IMG/VR virus record: IMGVR_UViG_3300002835_000006
Strand: one strand, 5' to 3'
Origin: a virus
Lineage: Duplodnaviria > Caudoviricetes
Length of the DNA: 64,000 nt
The notes under the pieces are model-generated. The model made no database searches and was not told the origin of the DNA. It was given only the letters and a program-made list of their open reading frames with translations. Both the position numbers and the translations under genes were made by a program. Of this stretch, positions 38,741 to 55,754 are shown piece after piece; the first letter of the stretch is position 1, and each line of letters starts with the position of its first letter.

Positions 38741-38766
38741 AAAGGGGTCATTTATGTTGACCCCTT
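38741..38766 (-). terminator. Terminator between leader ORF and HNH gene
   Basis: Minus strand AAGGGGTCA-ACATAAA-TGACCCCTTTGTTTTTTT. Confidence 0.75.
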
Positions 38767-38781
38767 CAGATATAGAATGAT

Positions 38782-38865
38782 TTAATACTTGTTTATGGTT
38801 CGGAATTTAATTCGATTTCCAATCACCATGTTCTCATAAATGTTGTCGTTTTCCAAAAGACACAT
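38782..38865 (-). CDS. Putative 27-aa leader peptide MCLLENDNIYENMVIGNRIKFRTINKY
   Basis: Hand-translated; TATTTATA upstream, terminator 15 nt downstream. Confidence 0.4.
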   Translation of the reverse strand: MCLLENDNIYENMVIGNRIKFRTINKY

Positions 38866-38925
38866 CGTTTAATTCATTTATATAAATAAATATCAAATTT
38901 TGTTATATTTATAAATAAATTTTTT

Positions 38926-40090: not shown

Positions 40091-40104
40091 CAAAATTTCT
40101 TGAA

Positions 40105-40458
40105 ATGGCACATCCCAACTTACATGCCAAATCTTCCGCAAAAAAATTTGGTGGTAAACCCGAAGATTACATACATCTACACGAGTGGTTAGATGAAACA
40201 AAAGGTTGGTTTGGTGATTCTCTCCACAGAATGTTCAGACATCATTCTGAAGGAATTTTTGAGATGGAACAACGTTTCGGAACTGAATTCAAGAACAGTG
40301 ATGGTAAAACTGTGTATACAAGGTATGTCGGTGAACAACATGTGAAAGAAGATTGTAATAACTACATACCTTCAGCTAAAGAATGGGTGAATAATCTGAG
40401 TGAAAATAAAAGACCGATTTGGATGATGAAAACTGTAAAACTTGAATTTGAAGATTGA
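40105..40458 (+). CDS. DUF6915-like protein
   Basis: MAHP..HA.SS.KKFGG..EDY..LHEWLDETK......HR..RHHSEGIF..E..FG...R.VGEQHV.ED. Confidence 0.65.
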   Translation: MAHPNLHAKSSAKKFGGKPEDYIHLHEWLDETKGWFGDSLHRMFRHHSEGIFEMEQRFGTEFKNSDGKTVYTRYVGEQHVKEDCNNYIPSAKEWVNNLSENKRPIWMMKTVKLEFED

Positions 40459-41033
40459 ATTATTCTCACAAAAATAAAATCTTATGGTTCACACCGATTC
40501 GTACTGCTTCACGAGCTTGTGTCCCAATTATGGAATATTTTAATTTTGATAGTACAAAATATCACGATGAAAATTTTCCAAAAGACTCGGATGACTATGT
40601 TTTAATAACCAACGTTCACAACCCATATAAAAGATTGGTGTCCATTTTTAAAATGTTTGAGGAACAAAAAAATTTATCAAACGTTTCCTTTCATGATTGG
40701 ATTCATACAAATTTGAAAAATTTAAATAAACACAATCAAAACCCACATCAATTATGGATTTCTAAATTTATCTTATCATTCAAAAAAAAACCTGATTATA
40801 TTGTAAGAGTAGAAAATATTGAAGAAGATTTATTGAAAATAAAATTTATTCAGGAAAATATGAGTAAGGAATTAAAAAAAATATTTTCTGAGAATATAAA
40901 AACAAATCAATACAGAGAAGATAATTTTGATTATTGGAAAAAAGAATACGATGAAAGTCTATCAAATTACATTTTTGATAATTTTAGAAATGATTTTGAA
41001 TTATTTGGATATGATAAGAATTCTTGGAAATAA
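40455..41033 (+). CDS. Sulfotransferase-family-like protein
   Basis: WFTPIRTASRA (PAPS-loop-like), VHNPYKRLVS, DYIVRVENIEEDL, F..DFELFGY. Confidence 0.65.
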   Translation: MNYSHKNKILWFTPIRTASRACVPIMEYFNFDSTKYHDENFPKDSDDYVLITNVHNPYKRLVSIFKMFEEQKNLSNVSFHDWIHTNLKNLNKHNQNPHQLWISKFILSFKKKPDYIVRVENIEEDLLKIKFIQENMSKELKKIFSENIKTNQYREDNFDYWKKEYDESLSNYIFDNFRNDFELFGYDKNSWK

Positions 41034-41051
41034 TCCAACATATTTATTTTT

Positions 41052-41768
41052 ATGAAAATAGAACAATCTTTACCCACAGTACTATCTCCCGAAGAAAAAA
41101 AATATCTTCGAAGTTATACAAGATACTTGAAAGCCTCAGGTATGAGTGAAGGACTTCTTGAGATTGAATTTGATGATTATGTAATTGATGATATTCATTG
41201 GGAGGAGTTCACCTCTTTTTCTAATAACTACAGAGTAGATATTACTGAAGAGTTACAACAAATCTTTGAAAAAATTTTTGATTTTATACAATCCAAAAAT
41301 CTTATTGAAGAACCTTATGAGGAATTAAATTATAGAAGACTTGAGATTGAAATAGATTGTAGAAATTCAACGATTACTATATCTGATTTTTATACCTACT
41401 ATGAAACTTCAGAAACCGAAGGTGTTTCTTACGAAGATGATGAACAACTAGACGAACTCTTTGATTCTATTTCAAAGGTTTTTGATGATAATGGCGTCAA
41501 AGATAAAGAATTCACTCTTGATTACAATGGTAGTGGTGACAGTGGTTATATAGAGGATAATTTCAGTAATAATATTCGTGTTCCAGACAAGGTCGAAGAT
41601 TGGTGTTATCGTCAGTTAGAAAATCATTTTGGAGGTTGGGAAATAAATGAAGGTTCTCAGGGTCAGTTTATCTTTGATTCCGATACAAAAACTATAGAGT
41701 TACTTCACACCGCAAATGTTGAAGAGCAAATCAATAAAACAATTTTCGAAGAAAAATTTTCTGAATAA
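41052..41768 (+). CDS. DUF6878-like protein
   Basis: LDYNGSGDSGYI...GGWEINEGSQG.F.F motif. Confidence 0.55.
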   Translation: MKIEQSLPTVLSPEEKKYLRSYTRYLKASGMSEGLLEIEFDDYVIDDIHWEEFTSFSNNYRVDITEELQQIFEKIFDFIQSKNLIEEPYEELNYRRLEIEIDCRNSTITISDFYTYYETSETEGVSYEDDEQLDELFDSISKVFDDNGVKDKEFTLDYNGSGDSGYIEDNFSNNIRVPDKVEDWCYRQLENHFGGWEINEGSQGQFIFDSDTKTIELLHTANVEEQINKTIFEEKFSE

Positions 41769-41793
41769 AATTTTTTTATTATTTTTGTCTAAT

Positions 41794-41879
41794 ACCTCGG
41801 TGTTGAAATAGGTAGACAAGAGAGACTTAAAATCTCTTGGACAGTAATGTCCGTGCCGGTTCGACTCCGGCCCGAGGTA
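41794..41879 (+). tRNA. trnL: tRNA-Leu(UAA)
   Basis: AGAGA-CTTAAAA-TCTCT; long variable arm. Confidence 0.92.
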
Positions 41880-41882
41880 CAC

Positions 41883-41914
41883 TTGACACTTTCAATATTT
41901 TGAATATATTTATA
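41883..41914 (+). promoter_or_regulatory. Promoter TTGACA-N16-TATATTTATA
   Basis: Same architecture at 45162-45194 (N17). Confidence 0.6.
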
Positions 41915-41919
41915 ACTGA

Positions 41920-42006
41920 ATGAAAACAATGAACTTCCATATAGAGTTTAGTAGTCAACAAGAGATTTGTTGGAAAACTCCTATGCGTAGTTCGGTAAAC
42001 ATGTAA
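41920..42006 (+). CDS. Putative 28-aa leader peptide MKTMNFHIEFSSQQEICWKTPMRSSVNM
   Basis: Hand-translated; lies between the promoter and a terminator. Confidence 0.45.
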   Translation: MKTMNFHIEFSSQQEICWKTPMRSSVNM

Positions 42007-42028
42007 ACTCCTGAAGAGTTATATATAC

Positions 42029-42068
42029 AACCTCGGACTACGTAAGTGGTTCGGGGTTTTTTGTTTTT
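42029..42068 (+). terminator. Terminator/attenuator hairpin with GUAA tetraloop
   Basis: AACCTCGGACTAC-GTAA-GTGGTTCGGGGTT, 13 bp including G.U pairs, then TTTTGTTTTT. Confidence 0.75.
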
Positions 42069-42118
42069 AGGAAGTTTATTTGGTTCTTTGAAATATTGGT
42101 TGTAAATTTGTAGTTCTT

Positions 42119-42190
42119 GGCCCCGTCGTCTAATGGTTAGGACGCCACCCTTTCACGGTGGAGATTTCGGTTCGACTCCGTGCGGGGCTA
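42119..42190 (+). tRNA. trnE: tRNA-Glu(UUC)
   Basis: CCACC-CTTTCAC-GGTGG. Confidence 0.9.
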
Positions 42191-42217
42191 CAAAATCTTA
42201 AATTTTAGCAATAATTC

Positions 42218-42290
42218 GGTAATCAAGCTAACTTAGTAGAAGCGTAGGACTGAAAATCCTGAGGAGTTGGAGCGTAACCAACGATTACCA
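42218..42290 (+). tRNA. trnF: tRNA-Phe(GAA), non-canonical T-loop
   Basis: GGTAATC/GATTACC; TAGGA-CTGAAAA-TCCTG; T-arm GTTGG-AGCGTAA-CCAAC. Confidence 0.75.
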
Positions 42291-42306
42291 CAAAAAAACA
42301 AATATT

Positions 42307-43116
42307 ATGAAAAAAACATGTTTAGTGATTTATGTCGGAAATGGATATTCCGAATTTGAACTTTCTCATGATGGTGCATACACCTATTCCACGGATATGA
42401 AAGAAAACTATGAAAATCATCAGGAGAATATTTTCAATCCACTAAGAGAACAAGGTTATGATGTGGAGTTTGCATTATTGACTAACAAACACGATAAGTA
42501 TGCCGAATATTTTCGTTTCTACAATGCCATTTTCTTGGATTACGATGAGGTTAGTCTACATGATGAGGAGGTAATGAAGAATTATTATTTTTGGAGATAC
42601 AATGTTCCTCCAGGTAACTTTCGTAGTGGAGGGAGATTTAAGAAATTGAAAAATAAAATTCCCGAATATGATATCTATGCAATCATCAGAACTGACACCT
42701 TTTTCCTCAAGAGTCTCAATGACCTGACTGTAGACTATGATAAAATGAATTGGTTATGGCCTGAGACAGATTGGCAAATGTTTACTGAATTTAAGGAAGC
42801 ATACCTAAGTGATGGTAAGACAGAATTTTGGCCTTGGCAAAAACATAATCGTGTAAACGGTAATGTTTTCAACATCGTACCAAAAAAGTTTTTCCGTATG
42901 TTTACAAATTATATCTGGATGGAACATGCAGCACTCTACGCGATGTTGAATGAGTTATCACCATTGGTGACCTTAGATGATGTCAACATGATGTTAGGAA
43001 TGGACAAATGTTATTGCACAGATATCAGATATTGTCAAAACCCTGTATATACGTTCAACAAAAAAATCATCAAGAATAGGTCTGATGCAAAACTCGAACA
43101 TTTTGGTAAAAAATAA
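42307..43116 (+). CDS. Hypothetical protein, possibly glycosyltransferase-like
   Basis: 269 aa; YDIYAIIRTDTFF resembles motifs of GT-like phage proteins. Confidence 0.55.
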   Translation: MKKTCLVIYVGNGYSEFELSHDGAYTYSTDMKENYENHQENIFNPLREQGYDVEFALLTNKHDKYAEYFRFYNAIFLDYDEVSLHDEEVMKNYYFWRYNVPPGNFRSGGRFKKLKNKIPEYDIYAIIRTDTFFLKSLNDLTVDYDKMNWLWPETDWQMFTEFKEAYLSDGKTEFWPWQKHNRVNGNVFNIVPKKFFRMFTNYIWMEHAALYAMLNELSPLVTLDDVNMMLGMDKCYCTDIRYCQNPVYTFNKKIIKNRSDAKLEHFGKK

Positions 43117-43121
43117 AATAT

Positions 43122-43193
43122 GGTCGGTTGGCCGAGTGGCTTAGGTGGAAGTCTGCAAAACTTTCTACACAGGTTCGAATCCTGTACCGACCT
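43122..43193 (+). tRNA. trnC: tRNA-Cys(GCA)
   Basis: GAAGT-CTGCAAA-ACTTT; U73. Confidence 0.92.
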
Positions 43194-43199
43194 CGAAAT

Positions 43200-43272
43200 T
43201 GGAATATAGCTCAGTTGGTAGAGTACTACTCTGATACGGTAGTTGTCGGCGGTTCGAGCCCGCCTATTCCAA
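43200..43272 (+). tRNA. trnI: tRNA-Ile(GAU)
   Basis: CTACT-CTGATAC-GGTAG; TGGAATA/TATTCCA. Confidence 0.9.
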
Positions 43273-43285
43273 CAACAATTTTGTT

Positions 43286-43816
43286 ATGAGACGAAAAATC
43301 ATTTTTATTGATGTTGATGGACCCTTGGCTTGGGGAACGTGGGATTTAGGACCTCAAAATTTCAATATCGAATGTGCTAATTCTCGCAAATTCCAAATTC
43401 CTTATCCTTGGGTACGGGAAGATTGTGAGGCATTACAGGAAATTTGTGAGCGAACAAATGCCGATTTAGTCGTCAGTTCAGATTGGAAACAATTCTATTC
43501 TATACGACAACTTAAAGACATTTTTGTCTCATACGGTGTATATGCACCTGTAATCGACCTAACAACTCATCTAAATTTGACTAACAAAATGAGTCCTCAA
43601 CCAGAGAAAGAAAGAGCACTTCAAATTGCTCAATGGGTCAAAGTCAATAAAGTTTCAAATTGGATTGCAATTGACGATATGAATTTATCCAAAGAGTTCA
43701 AATACCTGAAACCAAGAATACCTATGTGGAGACACGTACAGGTCGATGGGGATTGGGGTCACGGTGGCAGACTAAGAGATAAAGTTGAAGAATGTATCAA
43801 AAAGTTGGAAAAATAA
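43286..43816 (+). CDS. HAD-superfamily hydrolase (Swiss-Army-Knife RNA-repair-type HAD)
   Basis: IIFIDVDGPL, LVVSSDWK, NWIAIDD. Confidence 0.8.
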   Translation: MRRKIIFIDVDGPLAWGTWDLGPQNFNIECANSRKFQIPYPWVREDCEALQEICERTNADLVVSSDWKQFYSIRQLKDIFVSYGVYAPVIDLTTHLNLTNKMSPQPEKERALQIAQWVKVNKVSNWIAIDDMNLSKEFKYLKPRIPMWRHVQVDGDWGHGGRLRDKVEECIKKLEK

Positions 43817-43831
43817 TCATATCTTTGTTTT

Positions 43832-44380
43832 ATGAAAATCAATAGAGCGGATTTGTTATGGTTCTTGAGTAACATCCGTAGAAGACATGAAGGAAAAGAA
43901 TTGACTGATGAGAAGTTGGTTGATGAATTTGCCCACTACATGGAGGCGAACCCCCGTTGTATTGATGTGAATGGTGTTAGTAAAAGAGGGAGGTTCAGTT
44001 ATTCAACTGTTGGATACGGTGTATTCAGTTTGATGGGTGAAAAGTATAGAATGGGTAGAATTGAGGTTTTCGATAGAGAAGATGAAAGTGGGTATCAAGT
44101 TCATGAGGGAATCTACACTATGCCATTCGAAGTTGTAACTCAATTTGAGGATTTTATCGAATCGATTGAAACTGATTTACCAATCAACATTGAGATTGGT
44201 TCTCATAAATGGTGTGAAGAGGAGTGTGCAAAATCTTTAGGTTTTGAAAACTCCGAAGCAATGAGAGACCCTGAGAACGTGAAAAAGTATCAAAGGATGA
44301 AAAACGATGAATATGCACGTGAACAGGGTTATGAAGATTGGGAAGATTTGTTGAACAAAAGTAAATGGACTAAAAAATAG
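43832..44380 (+). CDS. Hypothetical protein
   Basis: 182 aa; TATCTTTG upstream. Confidence 0.7.
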   Translation: MKINRADLLWFLSNIRRRHEGKELTDEKLVDEFAHYMEANPRCIDVNGVSKRGRFSYSTVGYGVFSLMGEKYRMGRIEVFDREDESGYQVHEGIYTMPFEVVTQFEDFIESIETDLPINIEIGSHKWCEEECAKSLGFENSEAMRDPENVKKYQRMKNDEYAREQGYEDWEDLLNKSKWTKK

Positions 44381-44384
44381 TCAC

Positions 44385-44457
44385 GCGTGCGTAGCTCAAT
44401 TGGTAGAGTACTAGTCTCCAAAACTAGGTGTTTCAGGTTCGAGTCCTGACGTGCGTG
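44385..44457 (+). tRNA. trnW: tRNA-Trp(CCA)
   Basis: CTAGT-CTCCAAA-ACTAG; acceptor stem with three G.U pairs. Confidence 0.9.
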
Positions 44458-44462
44458 CACAA

Positions 44463-44588
44463 ATAGGTTGATTGGGGAAGGAATATACGTTAACCTGATG
44501 ATGGAGGTGGTATATTCGGAGTTGGAATCATCATAGTAATGCCAATCGTAAAAGGAGTTGTCCACGCGACCATCTTCTCCTTTCCTAT
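44463..44588 (+). ncRNA. Structured, pseudoknotted ncRNA candidate of unknown class
   Basis: Five Watson-Crick helices of 5-8 bp fill the tRNA-Trp/tRNA-CAT spacer; two of them cross. Confidence 0.65.
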
Positions 44589-44590
44589 AC

Positions 44591-44665
44591 GGACCCTTAG
44601 CTCAGTTGGTTAGCAGCGGCGCGCTCATAACGCGAAGGTCGTAGGTTCAAGTCCTACAGGGTCCA
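44591..44665 (+). tRNA. tRNA(CAU), probably Ile2 (lysidine) or elongator Met
   Basis: CGCG-CTCATAA-CGCG; G1-C72 rules out an initiator; overall similar to bacterial Ile2. Confidence 0.85.
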
Positions 44666-44670
44666 CAAAC

Positions 44671-44741
44671 TGTCGTATGGTGTAACGGTAACACAACAGA
44701 TTTTGATTCTGTTTTTCAAGGTTCGAATCCTTGTGCGACAT
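44671..44741 (+). tRNA. trnQ: tRNA-Gln(UUG)
   Basis: ACAGA-TTTTGAT-TCTGT; U1-A72. Confidence 0.88.
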
Positions 44742-44746
44742 CACAC

Positions 44747-44820
44747 GGTGGACGTAGCTCAGTTGGAAGAGCCCTAGCTTGTGGCGCTAGTTGTCGTGGG
44801 TTCGAACCCCACCGTTCACA
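44747..44820 (+). tRNA. trnH: tRNA-His(GUG) with genomic G-1 and A73
   Basis: CTAGC-TTGTGGC-GCTAG; GTGGACG/CGTTCAC. Confidence 0.88.
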
Positions 44821-44835
44821 CAAATATTTAATGTT

Positions 44836-45126
44836 ATGAATGAAATTGGATTGATAGGTAGTTTGTTATTAACATTCTGTGGTTTACCAGAACTCCTTAG
44901 AACCCTCAAGAATCGAAGATGTGACATTGGTTGGGGTTTTCTCCTTATGTGGTTTTTCGGGGAAATATTCTGTCTATTTTACGGTTTAGATTTGAATGAG
45001 GTTCCATTGTTGATAAATTATTCTTTCAATCTGATAATTGTAGGTACAATGTTATATTTCAAAGTCAGAGGAGAGTTGCCTGAGTGGTTAAAGGAGCAGT
45101 TTGCTAAACTGTGGTCGAGTAATTGA
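44836..45126 (+). CDS. PQ-loop/SemiSWEET-like membrane protein
   Basis: GLIGSLLLTFCGLPEL.RT.K...DI.WGFL.MW..G...LFYG...PLLINY; three TM helices. Confidence 0.75.
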   Translation: MNEIGLIGSLLLTFCGLPELLRTLKNRRCDIGWGFLLMWFFGEIFCLFYGLDLNEVPLLINYSFNLIIVGTMLYFKVRGELPEWLKEQFAKLWSSN

Positions 45127-45154
45127 CCCATTGGTTCGAATCCAATACTCTCCG
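45070..45154 (+). tRNA. trnS: tRNA-Ser(GCU)
   Basis: GCAGT-TTGCTAA-ACTGT; long variable arm; G73. Confidence 0.92.
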
Positions 45155-45236
45155 CAATAACTTGACAGTTTCTAAAGACTTTCATATATTTATAATCTCA
45201 AACGTTATAATAAACATTAACTAAAAAAAAACAAAA

Positions 45237-55688: not shown

Positions 55689-55754
55689 GTAATTTCAAAT
55701 AACTTTTACAAATATAAGAATAAATATTTTAATTCCAAACCTGTATTTATCAAT

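Follow-up and report, generated by a model that had tools for sequence, protein, structure and literature searches.

A probable ribosome-mediated attenuator, written in the codons of downstream tRNAs, precedes the second half of a phage tRNA array

We examined positions 41883-42118 of a 64,000-nucleotide (nt) stretch of DNA, hereafter the window, from the Caudoviricetes record IMGVR_UViG_3300002835_000006. The element at these positions separates tRNA-Leu(UAA) from tRNA-Glu within a phage tRNA array. Its sequence and that of its relatives make it likely that the element is a ribosome-mediated leader-peptide transcription attenuator, which would gate read-through into the second half of the array. 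Leader-peptide attenuation as such is a textbook mechanism. The original prediction had proposed an attenuator here from a promoter TTGACA-N16, a 28-residue open reading frame (ORF), a small hairpin, a GUAA-capped 13-bp terminator, an 11-mer (GTTCTTTGAAA) and the tRNA genes that follow, and all of these features were found where it had placed them. The attenuator itself was upheld, since the short ORF and the terminator were joined by an antiterminator and by a match between the leader codons and the downstream tRNAs, neither of which had been part of that prediction and both of which were backed by relatives. All features described below lie on the plus strand unless a minus sign is given.

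Relatives were collected by pattern scans of IMG/VR and metagenome contigs and then by nhmmer, giving 71 instances and 46 distinct variants, to which the counts below refer unless another number is given. Their sources were lake and marine samples; the contigs measured up to 321 kb, apart from one metagenome contig of 786 kb. Conservation in related phages had been suggested originally as a check, and the whole unit was kept in the 46 distinct variants. In every relative with enough flanking sequence, the element stood between tRNA-Leu (or tRNA-Arg-UCU) and tRNA-Glu and split the array in two, and the order of the tRNA genes was likewise retained. The upstream set of the relatives comprised Pro, Asn, Asp, Gly, Thr, Ala, Leu, and Arg-UCU, and the downstream set comprised Glu, Val, Phe, Lys, Cys, His, Ile, Trp, Tyr, CAU, Gln, Arg-ACG, and Ser-GCU.

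Folding of the 161-nt leader RNA gave a z score of -4.4 against shuffled sequences. An intrinsic terminator occupies 42029-42068: 42029-42041 and 42046-42058 form a 13-bp stem capped by a GUAA loop, and a U tract follows at 42059-42068. Its fold had an energy of -22.9 kcal/mol (z = -4.5), and no other terminator-like site in the 8 kb scanned was as strong. When the RNA was folded without the 3′ arm of the terminator, region 2 (41985-41995), which lies within the last leader codons, paired as the 5′ strand of an antiterminator with region 3 (42033-42043), the 3′ part of the terminator 5′ arm plus the first loop bases. The resulting helix of 11 bp had an energy of -19.3 kcal/mol and enclosed the small hairpin, and it was outcompeted by the terminator once the 3′ arm was included. 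The same region 2:3 helix was recovered independently by RNAalifold on 13 variants lacking the 3′ arm. Across the variants, the 11 antiterminator pairs were 92% paired compared with 29-45% in slid controls, 5 of the 11 changed on both sides, and the covariation score exceeded that of all 500 shuffles. Two of the covarying pairs use bases of the terminator loop (C-G to U-A, and G-Y to C-G or U-G); because they fall outside the terminator stem, the support that they give is specific to the antiterminator. The terminator stem of the relatives showed one compensatory pair (A-U to G-C), and the terminators of lineage A kept GNRA loops (GUAA, GCAA, GAAA).

The small hairpin (AACTC-CTGAA-GAGTT, 42007-42021) was present in the terminator and antiterminator folds alike. 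It was kept in 43 variants, with C-G, U-G, or U-A as its third pair, and was lost in three, labelled L039, L085, and L076. Its loop, CUGAA, was near-constant where the hairpin was kept and read CUGAU in two variants. This loop includes the Glu codon GAA, and the first downstream gene is tRNA-Glu(UUC). The leader as a degenerate tRNA or tRNA mimic was also considered and was rejected, as no tRNA model matched and the loop of the small hairpin has 5 nt.

The leader ORF (41920-42006, 28 codons plus TAA) is presumably translated, judging from its variation among relatives. The same ATG with an open frame of 26-32 codons occurred in 46 of 46 variants, whereas the other two frames held 1-5 stops. 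Synonymous variation was seen at T3 (four Thr codons), at E15 and E20 (GAA/GAG), and at Y19 (TAT/TAC), and the first 18 residues followed the pattern M-x-T-x3-H-I-x-[FY]-S-x-QQEICW. The end of the ORF behaved otherwise: the GUAGU core of region 2 was translated in two frames depending on lineage, as V-V or as S-S, and the stop codon came 4-21 nt past this core in all variants (4 nt in 25, 9 nt in 16). The use of two frames with the stop placement kept argues that the end of the ORF is selected as RNA plus an open frame and not as peptide. Within codons 13-18, folds and RNAalifold placed a further hairpin, hairpin 1 (CAACAA-GAGAT-TTGTTG, 41956-41972), which may serve as a pause hairpin. It was nearly invariant and hence without covariation, and in variant L149, which was recovered without hairpin 1 as an anchor, two synonymous changes in QQEICW weakened it.

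The codons of the leader matched the tRNAs encoded behind it. Of the 13 codons 6-18 (41935-41973; F H I E F S S Q Q E I C W), 12 can be read by the nine downstream tRNAs, compared with 29% of the codons in phage genes, and none of the 22,295 13-codon windows in phage genes reached 12 matches. The one unmatched codon is codon 8, ATA, which was kept in 36 variants. Furthermore, the variable leader positions 6, 10, 12, and 19 remained within the downstream set in 9 of 9, 6 of 6, 9 of 10, and 8 of 9 distinct codons, respectively, even as the chemistry of the residues changed (R/Q/Y/H/F/C at position 6; K/Q/H/E/S/N/R at position 12).

A second, paralogous unit, here called leader 1, stood directly before tRNA-Pro in 13 relatives (for example, L019:160-334, and in L079, 330 bases upstream of tRNA-Pro). 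It had a similar promoter type, an ORF of 30-34 codons, and a homologous terminator. Its peptides, with the core TPTTPNGD-G-LCL, draw on T, P, N, G, D, A, L, and R, the amino acids that the first tRNA block serves. Tables of leader (1 or 2, the latter being the leader described above) by tRNA set (1 or 2) within single contigs gave Fisher p values of 4e-8 to 5e-3. The leader-1 antiterminator paired AGGUUCAG with CUGAACCU, and in four variants AGAUUCAG with CUGAAUCU, a compensation of G-C to A-U. In L079, the U tract is followed immediately by tRNA-Pro, leaving no space for a separate promoter. In the phage studied here, nhmmer with both models found no further copy of leader 1 or leader 2.

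These observations suggest the following mechanism. Transcription from a promoter P1 would start a nearly leaderless RNA, on which a ribosome would translate the 28-codon leader. A ribosome keeping pace would reach the stop codon and cover region 2, so that the terminator would form and the transcript would end. A ribosome lagging or stalled at codons 6-18, up to about codon 17, would leave region 2 free, and these are the codons that match the downstream tRNAs. Free region 2 would then pair with 42033-42043 before the 3′ arm of the terminator had been made, and RNA polymerase would continue into the genes from tRNA-Glu to tRNA-Ser. With no ribosome at all, the antiterminator would be expected to form and to allow read-through likewise. 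The device would thereby act as a feedback sensor of the decoding of the leader codons, and a second promoter, P2, between the terminator and tRNA-Glu would offer a transcription route independent of the attenuator. The geometry fits greater read-through when translation lags, in line with the original idea of a tRNA supply that goes up as translation falters, the direction of the switch being deduced from this geometry and from classical systems. Hence the phage probably makes more of the downstream tRNAs when the leader codons are decoded slowly. Leader-peptide attenuation has been reported for amino-acid operons of Flavobacterium (PMC9723704), which makes the mechanism plausible in the phylum of the host, probably a member of the Bacteroidota.

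P1 lies at 41883-41913. In a sigma-70 scan, TTGACA (41883-41888), N16, and TATATT(TATA) from 41905 scored 11 of 12; as a promoter of the phage's own type, it reads TTG(ACA), N19, and a -7 box TATATTTAT at 41905-41913. In the relatives, TATATTTAT had a majority fraction of 0.87 compared with a poor 0.58 for the TTGACA hexamer. Over the whole contig, 13 of 16 copies of TATATTTAT were intergenic and the majority stood 3-8 nt ahead of an ATG; copies in the window include those at 38904, 45185, 49022(-), and 63755. We therefore regard TATATTTAT as a candidate second promoter class of the phage, beside TAnnTTTG, with P1 as a putative member. By analogy with the offset of the -7 box in Flavobacterium, where it occupies -12 to -5 (PMC9723704), P1 would start at about 41917 and give a 5′ untranslated region of about 3 nt.

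P2, a predicted promoter of the Bacteroidota sigma-A type, lies at 42079-42110, downstream of the terminator. It consists of TTTG (42079-42082), N20, and TAAATTTG (42103-42110), which ends 8 nt before tRNA-Glu; the predicted start is at about 42115, 4 nt ahead of that gene. P2 is predicted because TAAATTTG, with TTTG 20 nt upstream, fits the Bacteroidota box. The type TAnnTTTG was enriched between genes: 36 of its 128 copies fell in non-coding DNA, which makes up 12% of the genome, and the full pattern TTG-N18-21-TAnnTTTG was intergenic in 16 of 25 copies. TAnnTTTG stands 6-8 nt ahead of tRNA-Pro, tRNA-Leu, and tRNA-Glu and often 4-5 nt ahead of an ATG. In 44 variants, TA and TTTG of the P2 box were each conserved at 0.93 and nn at 0.58, with seven different nn pairs. 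Another sequence, GTTCTTTG, was dropped as a -7 box: it has no TA and is lost in relatives, and the true box TAAATTTG lies 20 nt downstream. The distances of TAnnTTTG (4-5 nt) and TATATTTAT (3-8 nt) from the ATG suggest that many mRNAs of the phage are leaderless; for annotation, this would mean two promoter classes (TAnnTTTG and TATATTTAT) together with many leaderless mRNAs. P1 and P2, being of different classes, may conceivably act at different stages of infection.

The whole P2 spacer, comprising the boxA-like part and TATTGGTTG, was about 0.9 conserved over the 44 variants, compared with 0.62 for the P1 spacer. This conservation could reflect a regulator site or a function in read-through RNA. 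A scan of bacterial genome contigs with the 23-nt P2 spacer gave 0 matches, and no origin in a host or host promoter was found in this way.

Several observations weigh against the attenuator. One of them is P2. The original prediction had named a separate tRNA promoter downstream of the terminator as evidence that would speak against it, and, as a sequence prediction with a predicted start, the conserved TTTG-N20-TAAATTTG before tRNA-Glu is such a promoter. The claim that the attenuator controls the tRNAs is therefore narrowed: the attenuator is supported, but it would not be their sole control. Since P2 is conserved and independent of the attenuator, the latter would add to a basal level, replace that route, or act at another stage of infection; we consider it retained despite P2 because the codon match would otherwise have no reason to exist. 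The RNA evidence has its own weak points, as the minimum-energy fold of the truncated RNA contained fewer than 6 bp of the 2:3 helix in 17 variants, and three or four lineages, separated by a few deep splits, account for the covariation. With respect to the codon match, leaders scored 232/336 against their own arrays and 215.6 ± 3.6 against permuted arrays, which is not strong evidence given that shared ancestry inflates this test. Codon 8 (ATA) would also be covered only if the CAU tRNA were tRNA-Ile2, an assignment that we presume from its features. Finally, the 18 N-terminal residues are kept as peptide, which is also compatible with a peptide-specific function.

Some of these points could be accommodated by a self-contained small gene, in which an RNA of about 150 nt would encode a micro-protein of 26-28 residues or act as a small RNA, the terminator would merely insulate it and the tRNA-Leu unit from P2, and P2 alone would drive the tRNAs. 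A complete and conserved P2 adjoining the terminator is what such an arrangement would look like, and the peptide motif kept with synonymous changes would suit a micro-protein. A promoter, a short ORF, a terminator, a further promoter, and a gene also follow one another in a similar way at 38741-38890 (-), where the gene is not a tRNA gene. However, a small gene leaves unexplained why two paralogous leaders are each written in the codons of their own tRNA block, why a change of frame alters the C-terminal residues but neither the RNA nor the place of the stop codon, and why pairs covary between the end of the ORF and the terminator loop. It also meets a difficulty in L079, where there is no room for a promoter between the terminator and the tRNA. 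We consider it unlikely. At the site 38741-38890 (-) itself, a box of the TATTTATA type precedes a mini-ORF and a 27-codon ORF; a U-tract terminator of 11 bp, TATTTTTG, and a protein gene come next. This site could be a second attenuator, unrelated to tRNAs.

The conserved N terminus also invites comparison with arrest peptides such as TnaC and SpeFL. In this case H-I-x-[FY]-S-x-QQEICW would act in the exit tunnel, a small molecule or factor, not the tRNA supply, would be sensed, and the stalled ribosome would decide between terminator and antiterminator. In agreement with this, the residues are conserved while their codons change synonymously, as do the two in L149 whose changes weaken hairpin 1, and by the standard of known arrest peptides a length of 26-28 codons would put residues 7-18 in the tunnel with the ribosome at the stop codon. 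Against it, positions 6, 9, 12, and 19 differ widely in chemistry without leaving the downstream tRNA set, and the leader-1 peptide is unrelated and again matches its own tRNA block. Arrest at the stop codon would moreover favor termination, leaving no obvious sensor logic, and an arrest-peptide switch is thus quite improbable.

The original prediction had also read GTTCTTTGAAA (42083-42093) as a boxA-type antitermination element. This did not survive: judged from its position and conservation, the 11-mer is spacer of P2, between the -33 and -7 elements, and not a boxA. With up to one mismatch, GTTCTTTGAAA occurred 6 times in the window against 6.8 expected, which is chance level. Situated between the terminator (42029-42068) and the predicted P2 start, it cannot help polymerase past that terminator, and it would be absent from predicted P2 transcripts. 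Its majority fraction was 0.87 compared with 0.90 for the remaining P2 spacer, and its core was broken in 8 of 44 variants. In favor of a boxA that loads Nus factors, so that polymerase would resist termination over the untranslated tRNA array, the 11-mer was kept exactly in 20 of 44 relatives and as GCTCTTTGAAA in 5. We take it to match the Firmicute-type rrn boxA, and it would be contained in P1 read-through RNA, where Rho might otherwise act on untranslated RNA. What this locus shares with rrn-type boxA/Nus antitermination is a stretch of 11 nt that matches a boxA-like consensus close to genes for stable RNAs; it differs in that the match here is downstream of the terminator, in a promoter spacer, and patchily conserved. 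Most leader-1 units have no such element. A boxA function is very improbable. A one-mismatch boxA-like copy, GTTATTTGAAA, lies at 55693-55703 (-), 5 nt before the transfer-messenger RNA (tmRNA) gene; copies of this kind are no more frequent in the window than chance predicts. It is downstream of the TATATTTG box of the tmRNA gene and would thus be in the transcribed tmRNA leader.

Returning to the attenuator, its closest counterparts are the enterobacterial ones, thr (Thr, Ile), ilvGMEDA (Ile, Leu, Val), trpL, hisL, and pheL. Like them, it would combine a short translated leader with mutually exclusive terminator and antiterminator and has the 5′ strand of the latter at the end of the ORF. As in the multivalent members of that group, the regulatory codons lie just upstream of this strand and several amino acids would be sensed together. 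Unlike the enterobacterial attenuators, which regulate biosynthetic enzymes, it precedes phage tRNA genes; they use runs of one to three codon families, whereas about nine to thirteen are involved here. Further differences are an mRNA that would be almost leaderless, the lack of a Shine-Dalgarno sequence, a second promoter after the terminator, and no match to an Rfam leader. The pheM leader of Escherichia coli pheST and the T-box of Firmicutes are similar in that a sensor of tRNA availability or charging sets the choice between terminator and antiterminator on the supply side of translation, but they control synthetase genes, not tRNA genes. A T-box also binds tRNA directly through a specifier loop and a T-box sequence, neither of which was found here (no Rfam hit); here the ribosome would be the sensor. 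Rfam searches at permissive thresholds, done twice, gave nothing in 41883-42118 near a gathering score, neither T-box nor another family.

To our knowledge, the regulation by phages of their own tRNA genes is essentially unknown. In full-text literature searches on tRNA-gene attenuation, in phage or at pheU/pheV, no report of tRNA genes under leader-peptide control came up. A leader sampling the codons served by the tRNA genes that follow it would sense decoding capacity directly, as part of a feedback loop, and would extend classical attenuation from amino-acid supply to tRNA supply. It would also be a clean natural example of one sequence under simultaneous selection for RNA structure and for codon content. 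Viromes from lakes and the sea show the family to be widespread, and the element is small enough for reporter tests.

Phage tRNAs have been reported to rescue infection from tRNA-cleaving defence systems (PMC10264068, PMC11464382, PMC11555353). The element might, along the lines of the anti-defence circuit in the original prediction, be imagined as a tRNA-depletion alarm: a host anticodon nuclease or another insult would shrink the pool of tRNAs for the leader codons and so stall the leader ribosome, the antiterminator would form, and a burst of replacement phage tRNAs would follow as an inducible counter-defence built on a trp-operon-style attenuator. We regard this extension as possible but doubtful; the trigger could instead be an ordinary adjustment of tRNA supply to demand. 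If the alarm were true, each half of the tRNA array would have a circuit of its own in the relatives with both leaders.

With regard to the setting of the element, the window is part of an 80.6-kb phage contig with a G+C content of 34%, and ARAGORN found 16 tRNA genes and one tmRNA gene in it. tRNA-Leu(UAA) (41794-41880; Rfam, 52.6 bits) closes the upstream tRNA block and, according to the motif listing, has a TATTTTTG box of its own at 41780-41787. The block that would be gated runs from 42119 to 45155 and, by ARAGORN, Rfam, and the ORF list, encodes Glu, Phe, Cys, Ile, Trp, CAU, Gln, His, and Ser(GCU), with tRNA-Glu starting at 42119 and tRNA-Phe at 42218. Four ORFs are interspersed in it (42307-43116, 43286-43816, 43832-44380, and 44836-45126). 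The genes here have no Shine-Dalgarno sequence.

Two tRNAs of this block have unusual features. tRNA-Phe(GAA), at 42218-42291, has an odd T loop, AGCGTAA in place of TTCRANY, and the lowest tRNA score of the array (44.7 bits); in relatives L003 and L010, tRNA-Phe is likewise placed after tRNA-Glu. The sole tRNA with a CAU anticodon (44591-44666) has C4 and C5 in its acceptor stem and the T arm GGTTCAAGTCC, which resemble the TilS identity elements of tRNA-Ile2, a tRNA that reads ATA by way of lysidine. Relatives with two CAU tRNAs fit a pairing of one Met and one Ile2.

A blastn search of 50,697 phage records gave nothing beyond tRNA-sized matches, and a protein-based locus search with the upstream ORF as query gave no match. 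Two metatranscriptomes and two doubtful 'RNA' runs yielded small shares in the form of contigs, and no conclusion was drawn from them; one marine contig joins a variant terminator to the P2 region but may be DNA. Near-identical DNA to 40100-44400 was present in 16 lake or freshwater metagenome runs filed in 2016-2024, which indicates repeated occurrence of the phage in such samples within that period.

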